Positions 24,510-56,938 of a stretch of DNA of 64,000 nt are shown piece after piece; the stretch's first letter is position 1; each line of letters starts with the position of its first letter. The translations under genes were made by a program, and so were the position numbers. The DNA is from Eledone cirrhosa (Eukaryota), in assembly GCA_964016885.1 (NCBI GenBank), contig OZ024753.1, positions 18,104,001-18,168,000 on the forward strand. Direction: 5' to 3'. The notes beneath the pieces are model-generated. The model saw nothing but the letters and a program-made list of their open reading frames with translations, was not told the origin of the DNA and made no database searches.

Positions 24510-26486
24510 CTCAATGCAGTTAAACAGAGCCGAAAAATTGATTGGTTCTCTGGGATTAATAGACTTGAATCTAATAAGTTTATCCAATTCGATATTGATG
24601 CCTACTACACATCAATTTCACCCATCCTCCTCAATAAAGCCTTAATGTTGGCCATGAGAGTGTCCAGCCTTACACGATCGCAGGTAGATATTATACTAGC
24701 AGCCCGTAAAACTATTATTAAATTTGAGGACACTTTTTGGACCCGTAAAAACACGCCCAATAATTTCGACGTTACAATGGGTTCGAGCGATTCGGCCCAG
24801 GTTACTGATCTTGTTGGGTTGTTCCTCCTTAATGAACTATACGCTACCTTCACGCACCTTGTAGGCGGACTATATCGTGATGATGCATTGTTTATAATTA
24901 ACTCTAGTACCAACAATGTAGAACGTAATAAGAAGCTTTATAAGTTTTTTAATAACTACAACCTTTCAATCACGATAGATAGAAATGATAGAGCGGTTAA
25001 CTTTTTAGATGTGACTTTGGACTTGGCCGCTAATAGTTTTAAACCCTTCCATAAGCCTAATGAAATTCTTTCTTATGTTAGCCCCAATTCTAACCACCAT
25101 AAGTCTATGATAAACTCTATAATTAAGGGCGTTTCTAATAGGATTTCCACACTATCTAAGGACATAGGAACTTTTAATGAACATGCGGAGTACTACAATA
25201 ACGCCCTAGCAAATTCAGGTCACTCTAGTAGAATAAATTATAATAATAGTAACTTTAGAAAGTCTCCGCTTACTCTTAATAATAATAACATTATATCACA
25301 TAACATGGCTATGAATGTGAGTAGCAAACTTAGTAACCGTAGAACTTATATAGGAGTATCTGAACCCACCCATAAGTTATCCCACCGGACTCGTAATAAC
25401 AAATATAATACCTCTAAGAGACAAGTCGAGCCCCCTGTGCGCTCACGCATTGGTTTTGGTTTGGCTGGATCTTGTTCTAGTAATGTTGCTCCTACTGATC
25501 CTATCATTGGCCTTAATCCTCTTGTAGGGATTCTGGACAACAGCGGATCTACTAGAGGTAGAAACTATAATAGGCATAATGTAATTATGGCTGATTCTAT
25601 GAATGCGGCTTCAACTATTCCCGATAGTAACCCTAGTCTCGACGGTGGGACTTTTGATAGAGGTAGGGTCGATAAGAATAAAAATAAAAATAGAAGGCGA
25701 TTGAATACTTATTTCAACCCGCCATATAACCAGGATGTATCAACTAATATCCCTAGGTCTTTCTTCACTATCCTGGAGAAACATTTCCCCCCTTCTCACA
25801 AATACCATGGTATTTTTAATAAAAATGTTATTAAACTATCATTCTCTACCACCCCTAATATTAGTTCTCATTTAGCTAGCACTAATAATAGGAAGATTAG
25901 GGATGGATTCTCCTCTCTGCAGACTAATAGTCTGAATGCATCGGACAATGCTTTACCACCAGAACAGTCCTTATCTAATAGAGGTCCTAGGTGTAATACA
26001 TCACCACTCGAGCCAACCAATAACACCCGGAAGTGCAATTGTAGAGTGAGTGCTAACTGCCCTCTAAACGGTAACTGCCTTTCTAAGAACATTGTCTATG
26101 CTTGCGAGGTTATATCTAATTCCTTTAAAGGAACATATATAGGATCTACTTCAAACACTTTTAAGACTAGGTTTAACTCTCATATCTCTAACTTCAAACA
26201 TATTAGGTTTAAGAATTCTACCTCTCTAGCGCATTATATCTGGGATCTTAAGGGAGCTTGTATACCATATAGCCTTAACTGGAGTTTAGTAGCACGATCT
26301 AACCACCTTTCTGCACATAGTAAGTTTTGTAATCTCTGTATACTTGAGACACACTCTATTATTTTCTCTAGCGTACCCTTACTGAATAGAAAGTCTGAGA
26401 TATTCTCCTCTTGCCCCCATGCAATTTCTAATTCTTACTTTTATTATAAACCCAAATGTTCTAGTAGTACAAATCGTACCCATTAG
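24510..26486 (+). CDS. Penelope-like reverse transcriptase with GIY-YIG endonuclease (N-terminally truncated)
   Basis: The frame is open upstream of the annotated Met back to 24510 and includes RT motif FIQFDIDAYYTSI. Then FDVTMGS, LYRDD, FLDVTL, FNPPY, CxCx5Cx5C (CNCRVSANCPLNGNC), IVY...YIG...RFNSH, CNLC, CPH. Confidence 0.92.
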   Translation, partial: LNAVKQSRKIDWFSGINRLESNKFIQFDIDAYYTSISPILLNKALMLAMRVSSLTRSQVDIILAARKTIIKFEDTFWTRKNTPNNFDVTMGSSDSAQVTDLVGLFLLNELYATFTHLVGGLYRDDALFIINSSTNNVERNKKLYKFFNNYNLSITIDRNDRAVNFLDVTLDLAANSFKPFHKPNEILSYVSPNSNHHKSMINSIIKGVSNRISTLSKDIGTFNEHAEYYNNALANSGHSSRINYNNSNFRKSPLTLNNNNIISHNMAMNVSSKLSNRRTYIGVSEPTHKLSHRTRNNKYNTSKRQVEPPVRSRIGFGLAGSCSSNVAPTDPIIGLNPLVGILDNSGSTRGRNYNRHNVIMADSMNAASTIPDSNPSLDGGTFDRGRVDKNKNKNRRRLNTYFNPPYNQDVSTNIPRSFFTILEKHFPPSHKYHGIFNKNVIKLSFSTTPNISSHLASTNNRKIRDGFSSLQTNSLNASDNALPPEQSLSNRGPRCNTSPLEPTNNTRKCNCRVSANCPLNGNCLSKNIVYACEVISNSFKGTYIGSTSNTFKTRFNSHISNFKHIRFKNSTSLAHYIWDLKGACIPYSLNWSLVARSNHLSAHSKFCNLCILETHSIIFSSVPLLNRKSEIFSSCPHAISNSYFYYKPKCSSSTNRTH

Positions 26487-40799: not shown

Positions 40800-42704
40800 A
40801 TGTTAAACGCAGCGAACGAAAATAGTGGTGGGGGGACAGCGGTAAGAGTTGTAAGCTCGCACGCTTTAGTCCTCCCTTCCTTCCCAACTAACGTCATAGA
40901 GAAGGAAGGAAAAATTAAAATAAAAACGGACGAATCTGCGGAGAAAAAATTAAATGACGAAAACATAAATCTGGACTTGGATTCCAACAACGAAAAAAAA
41001 AAATTTGAAAAATTGCATGACAATACTAATAACACAAACAAAGACACAACAAACAAAAAAATAACAGTTGAAAATAACACCATATCAGAAAACAAAGCAG
41101 ACGACAAGATTTCATTTGCACAGAAAACAAAGAAATCTTTGACTTATATAGCGGAAAACATTTCAGATGTGGTACGAAGGATCACGGACGCCAAACAATA
41201 CATAAGTGAAGGTGAGAATGGTATTTTATCGGTAAAAATGCCTCAAGAATTCACGAAAGACATTGAAAGCCGAACGGTCAAGTTTCGGACCATCAACAAC
41301 AGTACAAAAAAACCTGAACAGCCTTCTCAAGCAGATATCAAAACAGTACTCACAGAAGTACTGAATGAAACAACTTTCATAAGAAAAGACAGACTGTATG
41401 GAAGCCTAGCAATTATCATGAAGAACGAATCGGCGGCAAAAAAATGTGCTTTGTCACCGATTCGTTCGAAAAATTTCACCTTTTATCCATCTTATATGGG
41501 GAAAAGAACTCAACGCATATGGCTGGATGCAATGATGCCAGATGTGGACTACTGCTGGCTCATAGCTGGCTTCATCGATCCAGTGAATGACAACGTGATT
41601 TCCATTGGGAAAACCACAGGCAATGCGTTCAGTGGAACAGGTATAGAGCTGGTAGTACAAATGAAGCCTGAACGCATCGCCCAAATACCCGACAGAATCC
41701 TATTAGAGGACCACGGGTATATAAACATTAGCGTGGAGGGGAGAAGGCCGTCCTGCCATATCTGTGCAGGCAGAGGGCACCTGAAGGCCGCTTGTCCCCA
41801 ACTCAACAAAAAGAAAACCCTGCTACCAACACCAGCTCCACCACCACCACCACAACAGATAAACAAACAACAAAACTCAGTCCCACCCAACCCGTCCCTC
41901 AGTAAAACCACAACACCACCACAACACAAACAGTCACAACACATTACCCCAAAACAAAATACAGGCCCACCCAACCTCTCACTCAATAAAACAACACAAC
42001 CACCGCAGACACAACACACAACACAGTCTAACATAGTGACATCCATCTCCCCCACAAAGAAAACCAACACGGAAACATTACCAGCAAACATACCTCTTCC
42101 CTCCAACACTGAAGATAACCCAACGAATTCGGAGGAAGAAACGGAGTCCTTCAGACAGATTAAAAGGAAAAAAAGAAAACATGTGCAAAACACACAAGGA
42201 CAAACAACCCCCACCCAAATCGCAACACAATCCAGCAAAACAGAAAACACCCCTCCAGCAACAAACAAAACCAAACCTGCCCCCCCCCCCCTCTTCGAAA
42301 CACTCACACCATCGGAAAAAAAGACATTACACTATACTTACATCAACAGAAACAATAATAAATTAAATGAACTCATATACAATAATCCTTCGGTACAAAC
42401 CGAAGGTGTAAACTTTGTTTCGTCAGAAAACCACCCACATTTAAAACTAATAAAAATCCCAATGAACCTCTACCAAAAACTAAAAAAGGATTTTAAGGAG
42501 GACGTAGGACCACCCTCTGTCAAACCCATAAACCGCGTCCTACTAAAAAGCTTTCCCCCTCCCCTTCCCCTCCCCAACACAACTCCAAACACCCCAACCC
42601 CACCTCACACTGACGACCCCACACCACCACAAGACACCCCTTCACCCAACACCCCCGACCCCATGGAAGTCGTGCAACCCGAACCCCGGGAAGCGGAAAG
42701 GTAG
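40800..42704 (+). CDS. LINE ORF1 (gag-like nucleic-acid binding protein), element A, 634 aa
   Basis: CCHC knuckle CHICAGRGHLKAAC, Pro/Thr-rich linker, lies upstream of ORF2. Confidence 0.88.
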   Translation: MLNAANENSGGGTAVRVVSSHALVLPSFPTNVIEKEGKIKIKTDESAEKKLNDENINLDLDSNNEKKKFEKLHDNTNNTNKDTTNKKITVENNTISENKADDKISFAQKTKKSLTYIAENISDVVRRITDAKQYISEGENGILSVKMPQEFTKDIESRTVKFRTINNSTKKPEQPSQADIKTVLTEVLNETTFIRKDRLYGSLAIIMKNESAAKKCALSPIRSKNFTFYPSYMGKRTQRIWLDAMMPDVDYCWLIAGFIDPVNDNVISIGKTTGNAFSGTGIELVVQMKPERIAQIPDRILLEDHGYINISVEGRRPSCHICAGRGHLKAACPQLNKKKTLLPTPAPPPPPQQINKQQNSVPPNPSLSKTTTPPQHKQSQHITPKQNTGPPNLSLNKTTQPPQTQHTTQSNIVTSISPTKKTNTETLPANIPLPSNTEDNPTNSEEETESFRQIKRKKRKHVQNTQGQTTPTQIATQSSKTENTPPATNKTKPAPPPLFETLTPSEKKTLHYTYINRNNNKLNELIYNNPSVQTEGVNFVSSENHPHLKLIKIPMNLYQKLKKDFKEDVGPPSVKPINRVLLKSFPPPLPLPNTTPNTPTPPHTDDPTPPQDTPSPNTPDPMEVVQPEPREAER

Positions 42705-42737
42705 GTCTCTACACTCTCCTTTGGCTCTGCCGCCCAC

Positions 42738-45700
42738 ATGGATGTGTTAAGAGTAGGATGTTTGAATGCACGTGGCCTGGGCTCAACTTGGAAGCAAGCA
42801 AAGCTTCTAAATGACCTCAGGTCATGTAGTATAAATGTAATGGTTATCTGTGAGACTCGAATCAGCGTCATGCGGCAGCTGGCCCCCACCTTCGATGACT
42901 TTGAGGTGCATGCATCTCTCTGTCAACCTGGAGGTGGGGGTGGGGTTGTCGTACTGCTGCAAAAACACCTGGGTCTTGCCGTACAAGTTGTGCAGTCGGA
43001 CCCGGAGGGTCGTTTGTTGGTGCTAGACGTTGGCAGTAGTGAAAGTGCGGCCTTGAGACTGGTCGCCGTCTACTCCCCTTTCGGAGCTGAACGGCCCGAC
43101 TTCTTCCAGCGTTTGGAGACTTTTCTGGGAACGTCGCGTTCCCTGCTTCTAGCGGGGGATTGGAATGACATCCTGGATGCACGTTGGGACTATGCAGGAG
43201 CATGTCCTAATAGAGGGGGGTGTAACAGCCTCAAGGGGTTACTCGACCGTTTTAACTTGGTCGATAGATATCGACTAGATTTTCCAACTGTGCCTACCTG
43301 GACTTGGAGAAACCACAGTGGTCAATCTAGATCGTACTTAGATAGATTCTTAGTTAGAAGTAAGGATAGGGACATATTAAGCTGTCCAGAAATGCGCACG
43401 GTTGGCTACACGGATCACAAATTAGTGACCTGCGTGGTCAATCTCGAGAAAACACATAGACAGGGTCCCGGTTACTGGAAACTTAATTTGTCTTTACCGG
43501 CAAAAGAGACTTACAGAAACCGGATTAGCAGATTAGTTAAGGAGAGGTTGACGGGTGCAATCGTCAACAACCGATGGTGGGCATCTCTCAAAAGAGAGAT
43601 TAGAACAGAATCAATAAGTTATAGCAAGATGTTAGCTGCCGATAGGAATAGAAACGAGAAAGAATTAACAGGTAAATTAGAAGAGGCAATCAAGAGCGAA
43701 GATGTGGCCAGAGTGCTGGCATCGAGGACGGCCTTGAACCAGTTTTTCGATGCAAAGCACGAAGGCTGCGTCATTCGAAGTAAAATACGTGCTCTAGGTA
43801 ATGAGGGGGCCAAAGCCGTTGGATGGGCCCGAGTGACAGAAGCTAAGAGTGGAAATCGATCCACCATCCGGTCGTTGCAAGACGAAGATGGACGAGTGAT
43901 CCGGGAGCCTAAGCAGATGTGCGAGGCCTTTCAAAAGCACTTTGCCCGATTGTTCGGGGGAGGCGAGCGTCCGGGCCGGGGCGTGGATTTCGGTCCATAC
44001 CTCGACGACCTGCCGCGTCTCTCGAACGAAGAGGCAGAGTCCTGCGAGGGACCAATCTCGGCTGATGAGATCGGAGATGCGCTGAGCCAATGCAGCAGAC
44101 GCAAATCTCCAGGTCTCGATGGTATACCTTACGAACTTTATTTAGCAATGCCGGTCTTCTTCTCCGAACTCCTCGAAGCGGTCTACTGCAATTGGCAGCA
44201 GAACGGGAGAATTCCTTGTTCTGTAGCCAAGGGCGTAGTCACGCTGGTGAGGAAGGACGAGAACAAGGAGGATAGTATAAATAATTTTCGGCCCATAACC
44301 CTGCTAAACACAGAGTTAAAGATTTTGGCCAAGGTGTTAGCAAAGTGGTTGGCGCTTGTCGTGGGTGGCCTGGTGGGAGATGCGCAGACATGTGCTATCC
44401 CATCCAGGTCCATTCACGATAACCTCCACCTCATGCGATACATCATAGAGAGGGTTGGAAACAAACCCGGCTTCGGTGGGGCCCTGATCAACTTGGATCA
44501 GTCTAAGGCTTTCGATAGGGTCGACCATGGTTACCTGAATGCGGTGCTAGCGGCGGCTGGGTTCGGTCCTGTTTTCAGAGGCTGGATCACTGCCCTACAT
44601 AGCAACCACATCTGTTCTAGGATCAAGGTGAACGGCTACCTTTCGAAGCCGTTCGAAATCACACGATCCATTCGACAGGGGTGCCCTCTCTCCTCCCTTC
44701 TGTACGTATTGACTCTCGAGCCTTTACTGAGGAAGTTGGAGTTGTTGCAGGGTATCCCCCTGGAACCAGGATTGAGCAAAGCGGTGTCGGCCTACGCCGA
44801 TGACGTAACAGTAATGGTATCAACCGACTCGGAGATCGAGGCGATCGGTACCTTACTGGAGGAGTACGAAAGGTTGTCAGGAGCGAAACTGAACCGGGAA
44901 AAATCCATCGGGCTGCAACTCGGAACGTGGAGAGGCAGACCGATGCCTCCTGACGGTGTCGTCGGACACTGGACGGAGGGCCCGGTAAAGTTGCTTGGGG
45001 TCTGGTTTGGACCGGACCTCCAGGTGGAAAAGAACTGGAACGAGGTTACGAACAAGGTGTTTGCACTAACCCAGAAATGGGCCAAGTGTAAGCTGTCCCT
45101 AAAAGGCCGGGCGGAGGTGGCGAACATTTACATAGCGTCCGTCACTTACTACCGCCTGACTGTCGTGCCTTGCCCTAAGGAAACACTCACCACCATGGAA
45201 CGCATGCTCTTCCAATTTCTTTGGAAGAAGCGTCCTCCTATGGTGAGAAGATCCATCTGCTGCCAACAACCTTCGAAAGGAGGGCTGGGGATGCCGTGGT
45301 TGATGATGCGTAGGCACGCATTAAGGCTACGGCACCTACAGGTATTCCTCACTGGTCAACCGGTGTGCGCTCCGTTCGTGAAACGAGCCTTTCCGAGACT
45401 CGTCTCACTCACCGAGCTACAGTCCTGGGTCAAGCAAAGATCCGGAAAACTGGGAGACTGGCACACTGAGTGTGCTCAGGCGCTCAGGGCTCTCTGGCAA
45501 GCGGGCCAGGCCATCGGTGGAGAATCCACCTCATCATTCTATAGAGGGCTGGTGGCTAGCAGGGGCGATGACACCCTTGGAGAGTCGCTGGACATGGAAG
45601 AAGACGAACTGGCCAGCCTGTTCGGTAGGACTTTCGGCCCAGGACCAATGGACAACTTCCAGAAGTCACTGGCCTGGCAGTGCTACCGAGGGGCTCTACC

Positions 45701-46175
45701 CGTTCGAGAGAGGCTCTACAGACACGGGCGCCCGGGCAGGGATCCCTCAAAAAAGATTTGCCCTAGATGCGTGCGTCACGAAGAAACCGTAGCGCACGCA
45801 TTGGTGCAATGTCCGGGCGTGGCTGATCTGTGGGGCTACGCCGAACAACTGCTGTCGCGGGTGGCGCCGATTAAATTGACCGCCGAGTCCGTGATGACAA
45901 TCAAACCGCCTCCCCTCTTCACAAAGGAAGCAAAGGCAGTTTTTCTGTGCGTAATAGCCATGTTGAAAGAGGTTGTTTGGTGGACACGATTGAAAGGTCT
46001 GAGGTCAGGCAACTTCCTCTCTGGCCATAGTCTGGTCTACTTCTTCCGATATCACTTCGGAAGAAGGATAAGAATGGAGAGAGAGGTGCTTGGCCACAGG
46101 CAGTTTTATGAAAGGTGGGTGATAGTGGCGAGAATGGCTCGTGTAAATGGGCCTTCTCTGTATACCATCCTGTAG
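42738..46175 (+). CDS. LINE ORF2 (APE endonuclease, reverse transcriptase, C-terminal zinc finger), element A, 1145 aa
   Basis: LNARGL, ICET, GDWN, YLDR, TDHK (APE); KSPGLDG, RPITLLN, KAFDRV, QGCPLS, YADD (RT); CPRC-x7-H-x4-C. Confidence 0.97.
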   Translation: MDVLRVGCLNARGLGSTWKQAKLLNDLRSCSINVMVICETRISVMRQLAPTFDDFEVHASLCQPGGGGGVVVLLQKHLGLAVQVVQSDPEGRLLVLDVGSSESAALRLVAVYSPFGAERPDFFQRLETFLGTSRSLLLAGDWNDILDARWDYAGACPNRGGCNSLKGLLDRFNLVDRYRLDFPTVPTWTWRNHSGQSRSYLDRFLVRSKDRDILSCPEMRTVGYTDHKLVTCVVNLEKTHRQGPGYWKLNLSLPAKETYRNRISRLVKERLTGAIVNNRWWASLKREIRTESISYSKMLAADRNRNEKELTGKLEEAIKSEDVARVLASRTALNQFFDAKHEGCVIRSKIRALGNEGAKAVGWARVTEAKSGNRSTIRSLQDEDGRVIREPKQMCEAFQKHFARLFGGGERPGRGVDFGPYLDDLPRLSNEEAESCEGPISADEIGDALSQCSRRKSPGLDGIPYELYLAMPVFFSELLEAVYCNWQQNGRIPCSVAKGVVTLVRKDENKEDSINNFRPITLLNTELKILAKVLAKWLALVVGGLVGDAQTCAIPSRSIHDNLHLMRYIIERVGNKPGFGGALINLDQSKAFDRVDHGYLNAVLAAAGFGPVFRGWITALHSNHICSRIKVNGYLSKPFEITRSIRQGCPLSSLLYVLTLEPLLRKLELLQGIPLEPGLSKAVSAYADDVTVMVSTDSEIEAIGTLLEEYERLSGAKLNREKSIGLQLGTWRGRPMPPDGVVGHWTEGPVKLLGVWFGPDLQVEKNWNEVTNKVFALTQKWAKCKLSLKGRAEVANIYIASVTYYRLTVVPCPKETLTTMERMLFQFLWKKRPPMVRRSICCQQPSKGGLGMPWLMMRRHALRLRHLQVFLTGQPVCAPFVKRAFPRLVSLTELQSWVKQRSGKLGDWHTECAQALRALWQAGQAIGGESTSSFYRGLVASRGDDTLGESLDMEEDELASLFGRTFGPGPMDNFQKSLAWQCYRGALPVRERLYRHGRPGRDPSKKICPRCVRHEETVAHALVQCPGVADLWGYAEQLLSRVAPIKLTAESVMTIKPPPLFTKEAKAVFLCVIAMLKEVVWWTRLKGLRSGNFLSGHSLVYFFRYHFGRRIRMEREVLGHRQFYERWVIVARMARVNGPSLYTIL

Positions 46176-46452
46176 GTAAAGAAGTAAAGGAGGGGGAGCA
46201 CCTTCTCCATGTGCTCCCCGGGCAAAGGATTGCACACTTTTTCGGAGGTGTGTGCAACCCCCATCACGTCCCCTCCCTTTTAAGGTTATTTTCGATTATT
46301 TTCATGTTACACCCTTTTTACTCGATTATATGTAAACTCCCCCTTTGTATTTGTCCCTTCTTTTTATGCCTTTATGGTAAATAAAGAAATCTATCTATCT
46401 ATATATATATATCTCTATATATGTATATATATATATATATATATCTATATCT

Positions 46453-46790: not shown

Positions 46791-47050
46791 TTTCTTTATT
46801 AACCACAAGGGTTTACATAAAGTAGACATTAAGGACAGTGCAGGACAATGCAGGACGGTACAAATGGGCATTTCTGCGTGTAAAAAAACAAAAACAGAGG
46901 ATGTAACAAAAATAACAATGAAAATAACAATGAAAAATTCCCCAATAGGGGGGAGACTTCGGAGGGACATTTGTGGAGAAAGCCCAGTAAAAAGCCACAA
47001 TGACCCTGACCACCAAGGCAAGTGCCCTCTCCCAGTTTTCCACCTTTAGT

Positions 47051-50000
47051 TTACAGATATATACTCAGAGTCGGCCCATTCACTCGGGCCATTCTTGCTT
47101 CTCTCACCCATCTTTCAACAAAATGCTGGGAAGAGAGCACTTCCCTCTCTACTCTGATTTTCCTTTTCAAATGAAATTTGAAAAAGTCAATCAGAGCATC
47201 ACCGAAGAGGTAAGTGCTCGTCTTCAGCCCTTTCAAACGTGTCCACCATACTATCTCTTTCGCCATGGCCACCAGACAGATAAAAACTGCCTGCCCTTCC
47301 CGGCTAAAGGAGGAGGGCGGGGCAATCCTCACGATGGACTCAGATGATAGCTGGATCCGTCCTAAACGCGACAGCAGGTGTTCGACATAAACCCACAAGT
47401 CAGCAATTTTCGGACACTGGACGAGTGCGTGCAGGACGGTTTCGTCGCCCTGCGCGCATCTCGGACATGCCCGGCTGACGGCACCTCCATGCCTGTAGAG
47501 TTTATCCCGAACTGGCAAGGCTCCTCGGTAGCACTGCCAGGCCAGAGATTTCTGGAAGTTGTCCATAGGCCCTGGCCCGAAAGTTCTTCCGAAGAGATTG
47601 GCTAGTTGATTTTCGTCGACGCCTAGAGTTTCCCCAAGTACGTCGTCGCTCTTCCCCTCCACTAATCCTCTATAGAACGCCGAGGTGGAGTTTCCACCGA
47701 TCACATTGCCCGATTGGTCGAGGGCTGTGAGCGCCTGAAGACATTCCAGTCTCCAGGCGCTCCCTCTCGGTCTTCGCTTGACCCAGGACTGCAGCTCCGT
47801 CAAGGAAACGAGCTGGGGAAAAACGCGTCTAGCAAACGGCGACCACACCTGATCACCGTCGAGGAAGAGGTGGAGATGTCGTAGCCTGAGCGCGTGCCTG
47901 CGCATCATCAGCCACGGCATGCCCAGCCCTCCACGTAGCGGGTGTTGACAACAGATGGACCGCCTGACCATCGGAGCACGTCCCTTCCACAAAAAGCGAA
48001 AGAGCAAACGCTCCAGCGCAGTCAGGCGAGGCTTAGGACAAGGTACGACGGTTAGGCGGTAGCAGATGACAGACGCGATGTACGCGTTAGCCACCTCCGC
48101 TCGACCTTTCAGGGATAGCTTCCTCTCCGCCCATTTCTGGGTGAGAGAAGCCACCCTGCTCGTCACCTCGTCCCAGTTTTTGTCCGTCTGGAGGTCCGGA
48201 CCGAACCAGACCCCTAGCAATTTAACCGGTCCGTCCGTCCAGCGCCCGACGACGCTGTTGGACGGCATGGACCTGCCTCTCCAGGTGCCGAGCTGCAGGC
48301 CCACTGACTTTTCCTGGTTGATCATTGCTCCTGTCACCGCTTCGTATTCTCTTAGTGTAGTGCCGATCGCCTCGATGTGTTTGGCGTTCGACACCACTAC
48401 GGTGACATCGTCCGCATATGCTGACACGGATCTTCCGCATCCTAGTTCGCGCGGGACTCCCCTCAACGTCTCCAGTTTGTGCAGTAATGGCTCGAGAGTC
48501 AATACGTACAAGAGGGACGAGAGGGGACATCCTTGGCGGACCGAGCGCATGATGTTGAACGGTTCCGACAGGTGACCGTTCACTCTCACCACAGAGCAGA
48601 TGTCGCTGTGCATGGCAGCGATCCAGCCTCTGAAGACGGGCCCAAAGCCAGCCGCCCTCAGGACTGCCGCTAGGTAACGATGGTCGACCCTATCGAAAGC
48701 TTTCGACTGATCTAAATTGATCAAGGACCCACCCGTGCCAGGTTCCCTAGCTACCCTCTCTACGATGTATCGCATGAGGTGGAGGTTGTCGTGGATGGAT
48801 CTGTCGGGAATGGCGCATGTCTGCGCCTCTCCCACCAGACCACCAACGACAAGCGCCAACCTCTTTGCTAGCACCTTGGCCAAAATCTTAAACTCTGTGT
48901 TTAGCAGAGTTATGGGCCGGAAATTGTCTATGTTATCCCCCTTGTTCGGATCCTTTCTCAGCAGTGCCACCGCTCCTCGGCTCACAGAACTGGGAATTCT
49001 CCCGTTCTGTTGCCAGTTGCAGTAGACGTCCGCCAAGAGGCCTCCGAACAAGTCTGGCATCTGTACGTAAAGTTCATAGGGCAGACCATCCAAACCAGGC
49101 GATTTACCCCTTGTGCAGCCAGTCATTGCCTCCCTTACTTCAGCGGCTGTTATCGGCTTTTCGCAACACTTCGCCTCAGTGGCCGAGAGCCGCGGCAGTC
49201 CGTCGAGGTAGACACTAAAGTCCATCCCTCTACCCGGCCCCCCGCTGCCCCCGAACAGCTGAGCGAAGTGTCGCTGAAAAGCTTCACACATTTGCCCGGG
49301 ATCGAGTAGCATGCGCCCGTCGTGGTCCACCAAAGACCGGATCGTGGCTTTGTTGCCACGACGCGCCTCCGCCACTCGGGCCCATTGAACGGCTTTCGTC
49401 CCCTCGTGTCTGAGAGCACGCACCCTAGCTCTGACAACGCAGCCTTCGTGCTTTGCATTGAAGAATTGGTCAAGGGCCAATTTCGCCGCAAGCACGTCGG
49501 TCGCAATGCCTTTGCTAAGCGCCTCGTCTAATTTTCTAACTAGTTCTCCCTCTGCTCTATTTTTCTCTATTGCTAAAGCCTTACTAAACCTAATCGATTC
49601 TATTCTAATCGCTCTTTTCAGAGCAAACCACCACTTGTTGTTGACGATGGCCCCCGTCAACGCCCGCTTAACTAGTTCGCTAATCCGGTCTCTGTAGGCC
49701 TTGCGCGCTGGTAAGGACGCGTTTAGCTTCCAGTAGCCGGGTCCTCGTCTATGAAGCCTATCTAAGTCAAGCACACAGATCACGAATTTGTGGTCCGTGT
49801 AGCTGACTATCTTGAATTGTGGACAGCCTATGCTAGACCTATCTATTTCCCTACAAAATACTCTATCTAGATATGATCTGGATGACCCTATGCGGTTTGT
49901 CCAAGTCCACATTGGCACATTCGGGAAATCCAATCGGTACCTGTCAGACAGTTCAAAACGCCTGAGCAGGTTGGTGAGGCTCTTGCACCCTCCACCCCTA

Positions 50001-50470
50001 TCCGCTAATCCCACACAGTCCCAGCGTGCATCTAAGATCCCGTTCCAGTCGCCCACTAACACTAAAGAGCGCGACGTTCCAAGAAAGGTCTCCAGACGCC
50101 GGAAGAAATCAGGCCGCCCTGCTCCTGTCGGGGCATAGACGGCCACTAGCCTGAAAGCTTGCCCGTCTCCGCTGGTCACGTCCAGCACCACCAGCTTACC
50201 CTCTGGGTCCAGGAAGATGGCCCGTATGGCGAGATCCAAACCTCTCCGAAAAAGCACAGCAACTCCTCCACCCGATCCAGGACGGCTGGGAGATGCGTAC
50301 ACATCGTAGCCGCCGAAGATCGGTGCGAAGGCCCGTGCTTCGGAGATTCTGGTCTCGCTGATGGCCACTACATCTATGTTTAGTGACCTGAGGTCGTTGA
50401 GCAGGTGACCCTGCTTCCATGACGACCCCAAGCCACGCGCATTTATGCTGCCTATTCTGAGTGAGGTCAT
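47051..50470 (-). CDS. LINE ORF2 (APE, RT, zinc finger), element B, 1139 aa
   Basis: Same motif set as element A ORF2 and clearly homologous to it along its length. Confidence 0.97.
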   Translation of the reverse strand: MTSLRIGSINARGLGSSWKQGHLLNDLRSLNIDVVAISETRISEARAFAPIFGGYDVYASPSRPGSGGGVAVLFRRGLDLAIRAIFLDPEGKLVVLDVTSGDGQAFRLVAVYAPTGAGRPDFFRRLETFLGTSRSLVLVGDWNGILDARWDCVGLADRGGGCKSLTNLLRRFELSDRYRLDFPNVPMWTWTNRIGSSRSYLDRVFCREIDRSSIGCPQFKIVSYTDHKFVICVLDLDRLHRRGPGYWKLNASLPARKAYRDRISELVKRALTGAIVNNKWWFALKRAIRIESIRFSKALAIEKNRAEGELVRKLDEALSKGIATDVLAAKLALDQFFNAKHEGCVVRARVRALRHEGTKAVQWARVAEARRGNKATIRSLVDHDGRMLLDPGQMCEAFQRHFAQLFGGSGGPGRGMDFSVYLDGLPRLSATEAKCCEKPITAAEVREAMTGCTRGKSPGLDGLPYELYVQMPDLFGGLLADVYCNWQQNGRIPSSVSRGAVALLRKDPNKGDNIDNFRPITLLNTEFKILAKVLAKRLALVVGGLVGEAQTCAIPDRSIHDNLHLMRYIVERVAREPGTGGSLINLDQSKAFDRVDHRYLAAVLRAAGFGPVFRGWIAAMHSDICSVVRVNGHLSEPFNIMRSVRQGCPLSSLLYVLTLEPLLHKLETLRGVPRELGCGRSVSAYADDVTVVVSNAKHIEAIGTTLREYEAVTGAMINQEKSVGLQLGTWRGRSMPSNSVVGRWTDGPVKLLGVWFGPDLQTDKNWDEVTSRVASLTQKWAERKLSLKGRAEVANAYIASVICYRLTVVPCPKPRLTALERLLFRFLWKGRAPMVRRSICCQHPLRGGLGMPWLMMRRHALRLRHLHLFLDGDQVWSPFARRVFPQLVSLTELQSWVKRRPRGSAWRLECLQALTALDQSGNVIGGNSTSAFYRGLVEGKSDDVLGETLGVDENQLANLFGRTFGPGPMDNFQKSLAWQCYRGALPVRDKLYRHGGAVSRACPRCAQGDETVLHALVQCPKIADLWVYVEHLLSRLGRIQLSSESIVRIAPPSSFSREGQAVFICLVAMAKEIVWWTRLKGLKTSTYLFGDALIDFFKFHLKRKIRVEREVLSSQHFVERWVREARMARVNGPTLSIYL

Positions 50471-50505
50471 GTTTAAAATAGAGTGGAAAAGATGGGAAAG
50501 ACCAC

Positions 50506-52605
50506 TTACCGTATTTTTGGTAGAGGAGGGATGGTTTTTACATCCCTTTTCACTTGATCGTCTGGTGAAGGGACCGTTGAATCGTCCCTTCGGCTGGTCG
50601 TCGGCTCTTCTAAGAGAATGTCTGAATATACTCTTCGATTAATGGTTCCTCCTAGGTCCCTGAAATCACCAACTGCGTTGGGGAATTTCGTTTTAATGTT
50701 TGTGTATTGTTTCTGTGCTATTTTTAGCAGTCTTATGTTAGTTGGCGTTTTGATTGGTGCTGGTATTATGTAGTCCTGTTGTGAAATGTCTGTGTGTTCA
50801 ATTATGTAAGTCATTAGTTTCTTGTTGTGTGTGTTTATTGCCGTGCATTTGTTTTTCTGGGGGTGGGGTGTGGTTCTGCTATTTTCTTGTCGTTGTTGCT
50901 GGGTGTGTGTGTTTTGTTGTTGTGTTTGCGATGTTGGTGCTTGTGGTGGTGGTGTTGAAGGTGTTGTTGGCGGTGGGGTTGTCGCCGGTGGTGATGGTGG
51001 TGCTGGTGTGGGTGGTGATGGTGTTGGTGGTGTTGCTGCTGTGGGTCTCTTTGCAGTAGACTTTACCCTTTTCTCATTTCTTTCCTCCCTTTTCAAAGGC
51101 GACGATGCGCTGCTTCTGCGTTTGTGCCTTCTTGAGACCTTTTGCCATCCCTCTCCCACCTCACACTCCATGTCTGATTCTGTAAGGTCGGGGAGGGGTA
51201 CCAGCTCCACTCTTTCACTTGTTGTTGTTGGTGATGTTTGCACTGGAGTCTCTGTTGCAGCTGCATTTGGTATTGCTGTTGTTGTTGTTAATATTTCCAC
51301 TGCTGCTGCTGTCTTTGATTTCCGTGGAGTGGGTATGGGTGCCACGGACCTATCGTTCCTGGTTGCCGCTTGTCCTGTTGCTGGTAGCCGTGGAACCGGA
51401 TTCGGGAGGAGGGGGGTTTTCTCCTTTCTCAGGGTCTTCTCGTTGCAGAAGGCCCTGAGGTGAGTCTTCGATCCACAGCGAAAGCATTTCGGGCGTTTGC
51501 CCTCAACACTTATGGGCAGTTGAGTGCCGTTATCGAAGTCTATCACATCCGGGATAGCTTCGATGCACTCCTGGTTGGTTTGTATTAGCATCTCAATGGA
51601 GGAGCCGACCCAATCTTCTCTTACTTTTTTCTGTACTTGCAGTACAGTTGTTTTGTCCTCGATTCCGACGAGGACAGACGCGGCCAGCCAAGAAGGGGTC
51701 ATTCCGGGGGGGACGTGGGTCAGTTTGACCCTCACAATTTTTTGCCCGCAGTAGGAGGGCACCAACACCATTTCCTCGCTCCTTAGGGTCACTACTGATT
51801 GGGCCTTTGCCTCCTGGGGTGTGGCAAAAAGTACGTCTACGGTGGCGTATTTTTTGCCTCGGGTGATGTGCGTTTTCCTCTGCCACACAGACCCCAAGGC
51901 TTTTTGTATTTGGGCCTCTGTGGCTCTTTCCACCCTACGGGATTTTGTACTTACTGTACGGTACGTGACCGTACAGTGCTCTTGGGTTTCGAAAAAATTT
52001 TTCGCTGCCTTGCAGATTGCTCGGTGTCCGTTCTTTGTCACCATCTTCTTCGCTTCCTCTAATTCCTCATTTGTTATGAGGATTGTTTCCAGGTTTTTCG
52101 CAATACCTGCAAATGAGATTGGTTTTTCTCTGCTGTTGTTGTTGTCGTCAGAGCTGCTGGTACTTTTGTTGTTGCTGCAGGTACTACGACTACTGCCTCC
52201 GCCGCTGTTGCTGTGGTTGTTGTTGGTGTTGCTGCTGCTAATGCTGTTGTTGTTTATGCTGCTGGTGATGCTGTTGCGGCTGCTACTGTTGTTTTCATTG
52301 TCACTGTTGCTGTTGTTATTACGGCTGCTACTGCTATTATTCCTGACGTCAGACGAATGAACTGGGTTTTCGTATTTCCCGCACACCTGTTTCGTCGCTG
52401 TCGTCGTCGTCGTGGAGAAACCTTGCACGCTTTGCACGAGACTTTTCTTTTCTTTCGTCGCTTGCGAAAGAGAAGGTAGGGAGAGAGACACATTTAAAGA
52501 AGGGAGGGAGAGAGACAATCTTCTCTCTCCTGTAGTGATGATTGAGGAAGAAGAAGACGGAATGAGTGGGAGTGACGTATGAAATTTTTTTTTTTTGGTA
52601 GCCAT
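50506..52605 (-). CDS. LINE ORF1, element B (ATG at 52605, MATKKKK...)
   Basis: CCHC knuckle CFRCGSKTHLRAFC preceded by ISVEG, as in element A. The track start at 52638 is a TTG. Confidence 0.88.
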   Translation of the reverse strand: MATKKKKFHTSLPLIPSSSSSIITTGERRLSLSLPSLNVSLSLPSLSQATKEKKSLVQSVQGFSTTTTTATKQVCGKYENPVHSSDVRNNSSSSRNNNSNSDNENNSSSRNSITSSINNNSISSSNTNNNHSNSGGGSSRSTCSNNKSTSSSDDNNNSREKPISFAGIAKNLETILITNEELEEAKKMVTKNGHRAICKAAKNFFETQEHCTVTYRTVSTKSRRVERATEAQIQKALGSVWQRKTHITRGKKYATVDVLFATPQEAKAQSVVTLRSEEMVLVPSYCGQKIVRVKLTHVPPGMTPSWLAASVLVGIEDKTTVLQVQKKVREDWVGSSIEMLIQTNQECIEAIPDVIDFDNGTQLPISVEGKRPKCFRCGSKTHLRAFCNEKTLRKEKTPLLPNPVPRLPATGQAATRNDRSVAPIPTPRKSKTAAAVEILTTTTAIPNAAATETPVQTSPTTTSERVELVPLPDLTESDMECEVGEGWQKVSRRHKRRSSASSPLKREERNEKRVKSTAKRPTAATPPTPSPPTPAPPSPPATTPPPTTPSTPPPQAPTSQTQQQNTHTQQQRQENSRTTPHPQKNKCTAINTHNKKLMTYIIEHTDISQQDYIIPAPIKTPTNIRLLKIAQKQYTNIKTKFPNAVGDFRDLGGTINRRVYSDILLEEPTTSRRDDSTVPSPDDQVKRDVKTIPPLPKIR

Positions 52606-56773: not shown

Positions 56774-56901
56774 GTTTTAATAAATATATTACGGAATGTT
56801 AGACCAACATTAAAGGAGAGTATGGAATACCAACCCGAATATAAAGACCTTATGCAATACTGCTGGAGCCATGATCCTCAGAAGCGACCAAAGTTCAAAG
56901 A

Positions 56902-56902
<1 letters not shown>
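56774..56902 (+). CDS. Protein kinase exon (subdomains X-XI): [43 protein letters not shown]
   Basis: tttttctccttttgtag acceptor, GAG|GTAAAT donor, phase 0/0. LMxxCWxxDPxxRPxF motif. Follows a ~38 kb intron. Confidence 0.93.

Positions 56903-56938
<36 letters not shown>

Follow-up and report, generated by a model that had tools for sequence, protein, structure and literature searches.

Microsatellite-targeting long interspersed nuclear elements (LINEs) of the Tx1 type, namely Kibi, Koshi and the crocodilian Tx1 elements, carry two open reading frames (ORFs), with an apurinic/apyrimidinic endonuclease (APE), a reverse transcriptase (RT) and a C-terminal zinc motif, and insert into microsatellites and form head-to-tail arrays (PMC4494074, available sections). 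In the human LINE L1 the splice donors lie in the 5′ untranslated region (UTR), splicing is harmful and spliced integrated retrotransposed elements (SpIREs) amount to ∼2% of full-length copies (PMC5860796, available sections); ORF2 of L1 is translated by termination–reinitiation, with no AUG required (as cited in the accessible part of PMC1965478). Among elements with long terminal repeats (LTRs), Drosophila copia produces a subgenomic gag RNA by removal of an intron of ∼3 kb, and Arabidopsis EVD produces its shGAG RNA through a short intron and early termination, with U1 also protecting the full-length RNA (PMC5580714, available sections). Two intact LINEs that have the two ORFs, the APE, the RT and the C-terminal zinc motif in common with the Tx1-type elements lie tail to tail, A on the forward and B on the reverse strand, in a 64 000-nucleotide stretch of the 3.0 Gb genome of Eledone cirrhosa (GCA_964016885.1, contig OZ024753.1, positions 18 104 001–18 168 000 of the forward strand). 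This stretch is referred to here as the window, and positions are counted from its first letter. In both elements ORF1 ends in a splice-donor motif that is conserved across the related families. The explanation put forward here, which has about an even chance of being correct, is that this donor is spliced in part of the transcripts to give an ORF1-only mRNA, gated by a predicted RNA helix.

A conserved splice donor at the end of ORF1

ORF1 of element A ends with GAA AGG TAG and thereby forms a 5′ splice-site (U1-type) motif, AAG/GTAGGT (42698–42706, forward strand), in which the cut would fall between 42700 and 42701. The donor G is at 42701 and the stop codon (42702–42704) lies within the donor; a pyrimidine-rich inter-ORF spacer of 33 nt (42705–42737) and the ORF2 ATG at 42738 follow. 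Element B has ACG/GTAAGT on its ORF1 stop (50504–50512, reverse strand) and a 35-nt spacer that is out of frame with ORF2. Both the donor and the spacer of element A had been recognized in an initial annotation of the window, and the conservation across families that it envisaged is borne out for the donor within this genome.

Copies were gathered through a motif at the N-terminus of ORF2, independently of the junction, with 2658 and 8997 matches (11 and 12 in the controls); the clade is young and very abundant, with ∼11 600 matches to this ORF2-start motif. The 92 distinct copies fell into 21 clusters and provided 17 full-length family representatives from this genome. Within the 65 nt preceding ORF2, 85 of the 92 copies have a GT site with at least seven of the nine consensus letters, compared with 139 of 1564 equal-sized windows within ORF2. 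Scored with a rough splice-site matrix, which also underlies the acceptor ranks given below, the donor ranks first among the 233–307 GT sites in 15 of the 17 representatives and second in the other two (in element A it is second of 279). Letters −1, +1, +2, +3 and +6 are invariant in all 17 representatives and letters −2 and +5 in 16, with much lower conservation of the flanks. Since the motif is near-invariant while the fourfold-degenerate sites of ORF2 mostly vary (only 22 of 139 such columns are invariant), the donor is under selection; it would be bound by U1. Its phase relative to ORF1 is free: it is 2 in some families, 1 in families 12–14, 16 and 17 and in part of family 15, and 0 in family 7 and another part of family 15 (the representative of family 15 is in phase 0, which leaves the in-frame count of 10 of 17 given below unaffected). 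At least three switches of donor phase are placed on the ORF2 tree, and the donor is retained in families of phase 0 and phase 1, in which it does not supply the stop codon.

The donor is also present in related families within contigs of other runs, a second organism included. Among distant relatives, the two-ORF LINEs at loci L175 (positions 2205–2293) and L176 (29% identity) have CAG/GTAATG on the ORF1 stop and a pyrimidine-rich spacer; the end of ORF1 has a weak donor-like site in L174 and none in L177, L208 and L210. L208 and L210 (40–48% identity), with no such site ending ORF1, have a perfect CCCAG/GTAAGT at or just past the ORF2 stop (L208:4495–4510 and L210:7915–7930); their assemblies are labelled as prokaryotic and are probably animal DNA.

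Removal of the Ogre intron or of the third intron of the P element deletes stop codons and fuses frames, in a fixed phase. An intron of this type had been proposed for element A by the initial annotation: a 51-nt segment between the donor and the first AG past it (42750–42751, in codon 5 of ORF2, AGA), the excision of which would remove the ORF1 stop and yield an ORF1–ORF2 polyprotein. The donor, the first AG and the length are as described, although the boundaries had been placed 1–2 bases off (the segment is 42701–42751, forward strand), and its removal does restore an Arg codon in the ORF2 frame. Element B has the same geometry, with a 53-nt segment whose removal fuses the ORFs in frame despite the out-of-frame spacer, and the two elements taken alone favoured the proposal. 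The codon-5 AG is, moreover, present in 86 of the 92 copies.

Across the families, however, the segment is not supported as a functional intron. The distance from donor to AG ranges from 39 to 67 nt and, because the donor phase varies whereas the codon-5 AG stays in phase 2, donor and acceptor phase are not conserved together; only 10 of the 17 representatives would be fused in frame. Other nearby AGs rescue the frame in some families, the phase-1 families having another in-frame AG 2–7 nt further on, but no single acceptor rule rescues all of them: family 7 has no in-frame AG ahead of the catalytic motif and family 3 has no AG at codon 5. As an acceptor the codon-5 AG ranks 117th of 263 in element A and 13th to 237th of ∼260 over the families, and its conservation is no greater than expected by chance, because the Arg codon alone accounts for it (of the 29 invariant Arg columns of ORF2, 24 have an unchanged first codon letter).

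The copies themselves show no trace of such an excision. The segment is identical in the 30 best copies of element A and retained in all copies checked, and none of ∼2750 anchored copies lacks exactly this segment, although an RNA spliced in this way would retrotranspose in cis. No copy diverges right after the donor exon in element A (0 versus 595) or element B (0 versus 296); 21 copies in families 8 and 9 (versus 1475) and 18 in families 12–14 (versus 346) do so, in each case through point changes or small indels, and the 30 copies of family 10b that were read, from 46 matches, include no spliced one. A candidate fused copy (L108) proved to be a degenerate copy with an imprecise deletion. 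Excision would also delete the strong start context around the ORF2 ATG, and protein searches returned three ORF2 relatives, no ORF1 relative and no fused form, which is weak evidence. A polyprotein made by way of a mini-intron of 39–67 nt is very unlikely and the idea should be dropped.

ORF1 and ORF2 of element A share one frame with a single TAG between them, which had led to readthrough being offered as an alternative. Readthrough of the stop codon, or A-to-I editing of the UAG, would then join the two ORFs. This explanation fails because the frame is kept in only 52 of 85 copies, in which the distance is a multiple of three; it is broken in element B and in other young intact families, and TAA is the stop in most families. 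No A>G change at 42703 was present among the rows listed for contigs of runs of unknown kind, and a joint product of this origin is extremely improbable. ORF2 protein would rather be made from unspliced RNA by termination–reinitiation, as in L1. In the young and abundant family 7, the open 1145-codon ORF2 begins with ATA, overlapping the ORF1 stop (TAG), a start that by analogy with L1 suggests AUG-independent reinitiation and supports this mode of translation; a −1 slip at the ORF1 stop may be an alternative. In locus L261 (G000:C1:11261600–11267900) and other family-7 copies the first in-frame Met is codon 35 or 57.

Candidate acceptors at the ORF2 stop and in the 3′ UTR

In some of the transcripts the donor ending ORF1 would be joined to an acceptor located either at the stop of ORF2 or within the 3′ UTR, so that ORF2 is excised and an ORF1-only mRNA results. 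The candidate distal acceptor of element A (46150–46179, forward strand) combines a pyrimidine tract with the AG in the stop codon of ORF2 (46174–46175), followed by G TAA. It lies 3.47 kb from the donor, and the long intron would comprise the spacer and ORF2 (42701–46175); joining the donor to this terminal AG regenerates AGG TAA for ORF1. The terminal AG ranks sixth among the 263 AG sites of the element, and a second candidate ends at 46284.

ORF2 ends with CTRTAG in most families. A stop in the donor's own phase occurs no more than three codons past the terminal AG in 14 of the 18 TAG-ending groups, in a table from which 15 of 42 loci, those with no colinear ORF2 end, were left out; in the two other phases the same early stop occurs in 4 of 28 cells (first 14 groups). 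Of the four exceptions, three have an AG positioned 7 nt further upstream from which reading in phase runs to the stop of ORF2 itself, and two families examined afterwards fit the prediction of a phase-matched stop. Phase 0 has two origins, and each lies in a lineage that has a phase-0 stop no more than three codons away, a feature seen in no other lineage. A donor placed this close to the ORF1 terminus leaves ORF1 intact whatever its phase. ORF2 of element B ends with TAA and has no terminal AG. The strongest acceptor-like site of this element (46874–46900, reverse strand; rank 1) lies in the 3′ UTR, 177 nt past the ORF2 stop; over the B-type elements the best acceptor lies 151–177 nt into the 3′ UTR with a stop 19–33 codons further on, in U-rich UTRs that score high by composition.

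Two other uses of AG sites were considered and rejected. An ORF2-only mRNA could be made through an acceptor ahead of the ORF2 ATG, but that AG is present in few families. The best conserved acceptor-like AG, at 44578 within the RT region (17 of 17 families), was discounted, as conserved codons probably dictate its letters and an RNA spliced there would encode a product without half of the RT.

Element B contains a hybrid join at 50553/50552 (reverse strand), at which one parent contributes ORF1, ending precisely at the donor of that parent, and a second parent continues from just past a CAG. The element is ∼90% like the first parent family up to exactly that donor (15 of the 20 loci read are of this parent) and 96.4% like family 10b from an AG that lies 45 nt before the family-10b donor. 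The join is in frame, is out of homologous register and represents a single event. It is likely to be a fossil splice, from the donor to a cryptic acceptor in the read-through RNA of a mixed array. Head-to-tail arrays with an element spacing of ∼5.8–6.1 kb are found at G000:C1:43661686–43717224 and C2:188052518–188077257, some with mixed families, and mixed arrays provide a setting in which read-through splicing could produce hybrids.

Predicted pairing of the ORF1/ORF2 junction with the 3′ UTR

The region around the donor is complementary to the start of the 3′ UTR. The 5′ arm of the predicted helix in element A (42678–42735, forward strand) covers the end of ORF1, the donor and the spacer, and the 3′ arm (46174–46229, forward strand) covers the purine-rich start of the 3′ UTR; the pairing energy is −51 kcal/mol, which 0 and 2 of 200 shuffles reach. 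The 3′ arm of element B (46994–47045, reverse strand; partner 50534–50481) pairs fully with the donor. Over the families the energies are −50 to −66 kcal/mol, and in 16 of the 17 representatives no more than 2 of 200 shuffled sequences pair as strongly. When ORF2 and the 3′ UTR were searched, 15 of 17 representatives had their best partner window at the stop of ORF2, the exceptions being element A, where that window is third, and family 11. The own-family arm pairs on average 10.7 kcal/mol better than expected, and it ranks first in 7 of 17 and within the first four in 15 of 17, values that are inflated by kinship. In the clade of element A 300 of 366 cells pair, compared with about half in slid controls, and with longer flanks 12 of 17 representatives favour the helix over the control partner by a margin above 6 kcal/mol. 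Family 11 stands alone among the families in that the helix fails there, as a recent swap would lead one to expect; in the family-11 locus L244, ORF2 is 89–91% like that of element B and is accompanied by a different ORF1 and spacer. Among the distant relatives the helix is weak in L175 (10 of 200 shuffles) and L208 (1 of 200, not the best window), and none was found in L174 and L210. The search against Rfam gave no match and nothing came from viral contigs. On this folding model the pyrimidines of the spacer are best read as a helix arm and not as the tract of a mini-intron.

Because its two arms are the donor region and the sequence on the acceptor's exon side, the helix would hinder splicing once the 3′ UTR has been made. 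It likely forms at that point and would shield the splice sites in the finished full-length RNA. A wider proposal, put forward tentatively, is that the whole of ORF2 is a regulated intron, the 3.5-kb loop closed by the helix acting as a switch between an ORF1-only mRNA and a full-length genome, and that the donor lets tandem neighbours swap ORF1 by splicing and so found new families.

The same donor and helix could serve another purpose, in which the donor acts as a docking site for U1 and normally remains unspliced; U1 would either guard the nascent RNA from premature polyadenylation or retain it in the nucleus until displaced by the 3′ UTR arm, and splices like the join in element B would be accidents. 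That no spliced copy occurs among the ∼2750, that the terminal acceptor is weak or absent in several families and that the 3′ UTR of B-type and family-13/14 elements holds a full anti-donor stretch are consistent with docking, as is the repression of premature termination by U1 in Arabidopsis EVD (PMC5580714, available sections). However, ORF2 has only 0–2 canonical poly(A) hexamers, 8 of 17 families have no such hexamer and no hexamer position is common to the families, and the phase-matched stops after the terminal AG would be left unexplained. Docking in place of splicing is somewhat unlikely.

Alternatively, the motif may be a by-product of a strong stop context and of the pairing with the 3′ UTR, in which case the helix would serve translation or packaging and the donor would have no role. 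The ends of the helix do bring the start and the stop of ORF2 side by side, and conserved donors of human L1 persist for other reasons, for example as a RUNX3 site (PMC5860796, available sections). This origin is nevertheless improbable given that the donor is kept in the phase-0 and phase-1 families and that the join in element B falls exactly on it. In addition, the helix leaves part of the donor single-stranded: in many families the core does not pair, and it is the paired flanks that vary.

Several observations weigh against splicing to an ORF1-only mRNA under control of the helix. The early stop of family 3 is in a phase other than that of its donor, the terminal acceptor zone stands at ranks 1–6 in only 6 of 17 families (10–28 in 6 and 42–56 in 5) and the three B-type representatives have no terminal AG. 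Since the families are related, the phase match rests on about three to four independent events. None of the ∼2750 anchored copies lacks ORF2, compared with the ∼2% of spliced copies in human L1 (PMC5860796, available sections), and a preference for retrotransposition in cis accounts for this absence only in part. Spliced RNA was not seen, no run being on record as RNA; the rows listed for contigs of four runs of unknown kind (X1, X2, X3 and X5) include no joint at the donor, which is no evidence either way as contigs drop rare forms; a step in depth that X1 shows between ORF1 and ORF2 was left out of account. With regard to the helix, two-sided changes exceed those in slid controls in only one of three clades, the helix of element A loses to local folds (−2.4 versus −5.3 kcal/mol for the control), it fails in 5 of 17 representatives and the accessibility of the donor drops only modestly when it is present. 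The join in element B has a 2-nt microhomology, so that template switching is possible there.

The elements in the window and comparison with known systems

ORF1 of element A (40800–42704, forward strand; 634 amino acids) contains a CX2CX4HX4C zinc knuckle, read in the translation, and its C-terminal half is of low complexity; no Pfam match was obtained for it. ORF2 (42738–46175, forward strand) encodes 1145 amino acids with an APE-type endonuclease, an RT and a zf-RVT domain, and an AATAAA (46380–46385, forward strand) is followed by a (TATC)/(TA) microsatellite. In element B, ORF1 (50506–52605, reverse strand; 699 amino acids) is 30% identical to that of element A across 271 amino acids, and ORF2 (47051–50470, reverse strand) encodes 1139 amino acids. 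Pfam identifies the endonuclease, RT and zf-RVT (PF03372, PF00078 and PF13966) in both ORF2s, and the best solved relative of ORF2 is L1 ORF2p (E = 6e-51), compared with E = 1e-19 for R2. With an N-terminal APE, an RT and a C-terminal zinc motif in ORF2 and a separate zinc-knuckle ORF1, the element is a typical member of the L1-group LINEs; the name Tx1 is suggested by this architecture and by the initial annotation and not by an RT tree that includes named Tx1 elements. TATC/TA/ATT repeats adjoin most of the 13 element 3′ ends shown, an observation made with no count against a control.

Elsewhere in the window, Penelope-like remains comprise a 613-residue ORF (24645–26486, forward strand), in which an RT and a GIY-YIG domain are recognizable by eye with no Pfam match, and a GIY-YIG fragment (PF01541; 29645–29971, reverse strand). 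A host protein-kinase exon (PF07714) is present at 56822–56911 (forward strand), and elements A and B may lie inside or beside a host protein-kinase gene. The loci L144–L173, which are not features of the window, represent an unrelated short repeat with 7393 pattern matches that looks like the terminus of a non-coding DNA element.

The excess of ORF1 over ORF2 protein in LINEs is explained mainly from L1, by inefficient reinitiation. If the proposed explanation is correct, a spliced and structure-gated ORF1-only RNA would be a second solution to the need for this excess, of a kind so far described for LTR elements, and a hybrid family made by splicing would provide a mechanism for the ORF1 swapping that is common in LINE evolution. 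No LINE with such a donor, intron or helix was found in the literature searched, most subscription papers and all supplements being outside its scope; in particular, the available sections of PMC4494074 describe neither a splice donor nor an intron spanning ORF2 nor a long-range helix for Kibi, Koshi or the crocodilian Tx1 elements. Both here and in the Ty1/copia elements EVD and copia a donor ends the structural gene, and in the latter it gives rise to an RNA for that protein alone; these are, however, LTR elements with one gag–pol frame, whereas the present elements are bicistronic LINEs in which the candidate intron is bounded by two stop codons and closed by a predicted clamp (comparison with the available sections of PMC5580714). 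Human L1 is likewise a LINE with conserved functional splice sites, the spliced RNA of which can retrotranspose; its donor is situated in the 5′ UTR, whereas here the donor is at the end of ORF1, no internally spliced copy is observed and one join between elements founded a successful family (comparison with the available sections of PMC5860796).

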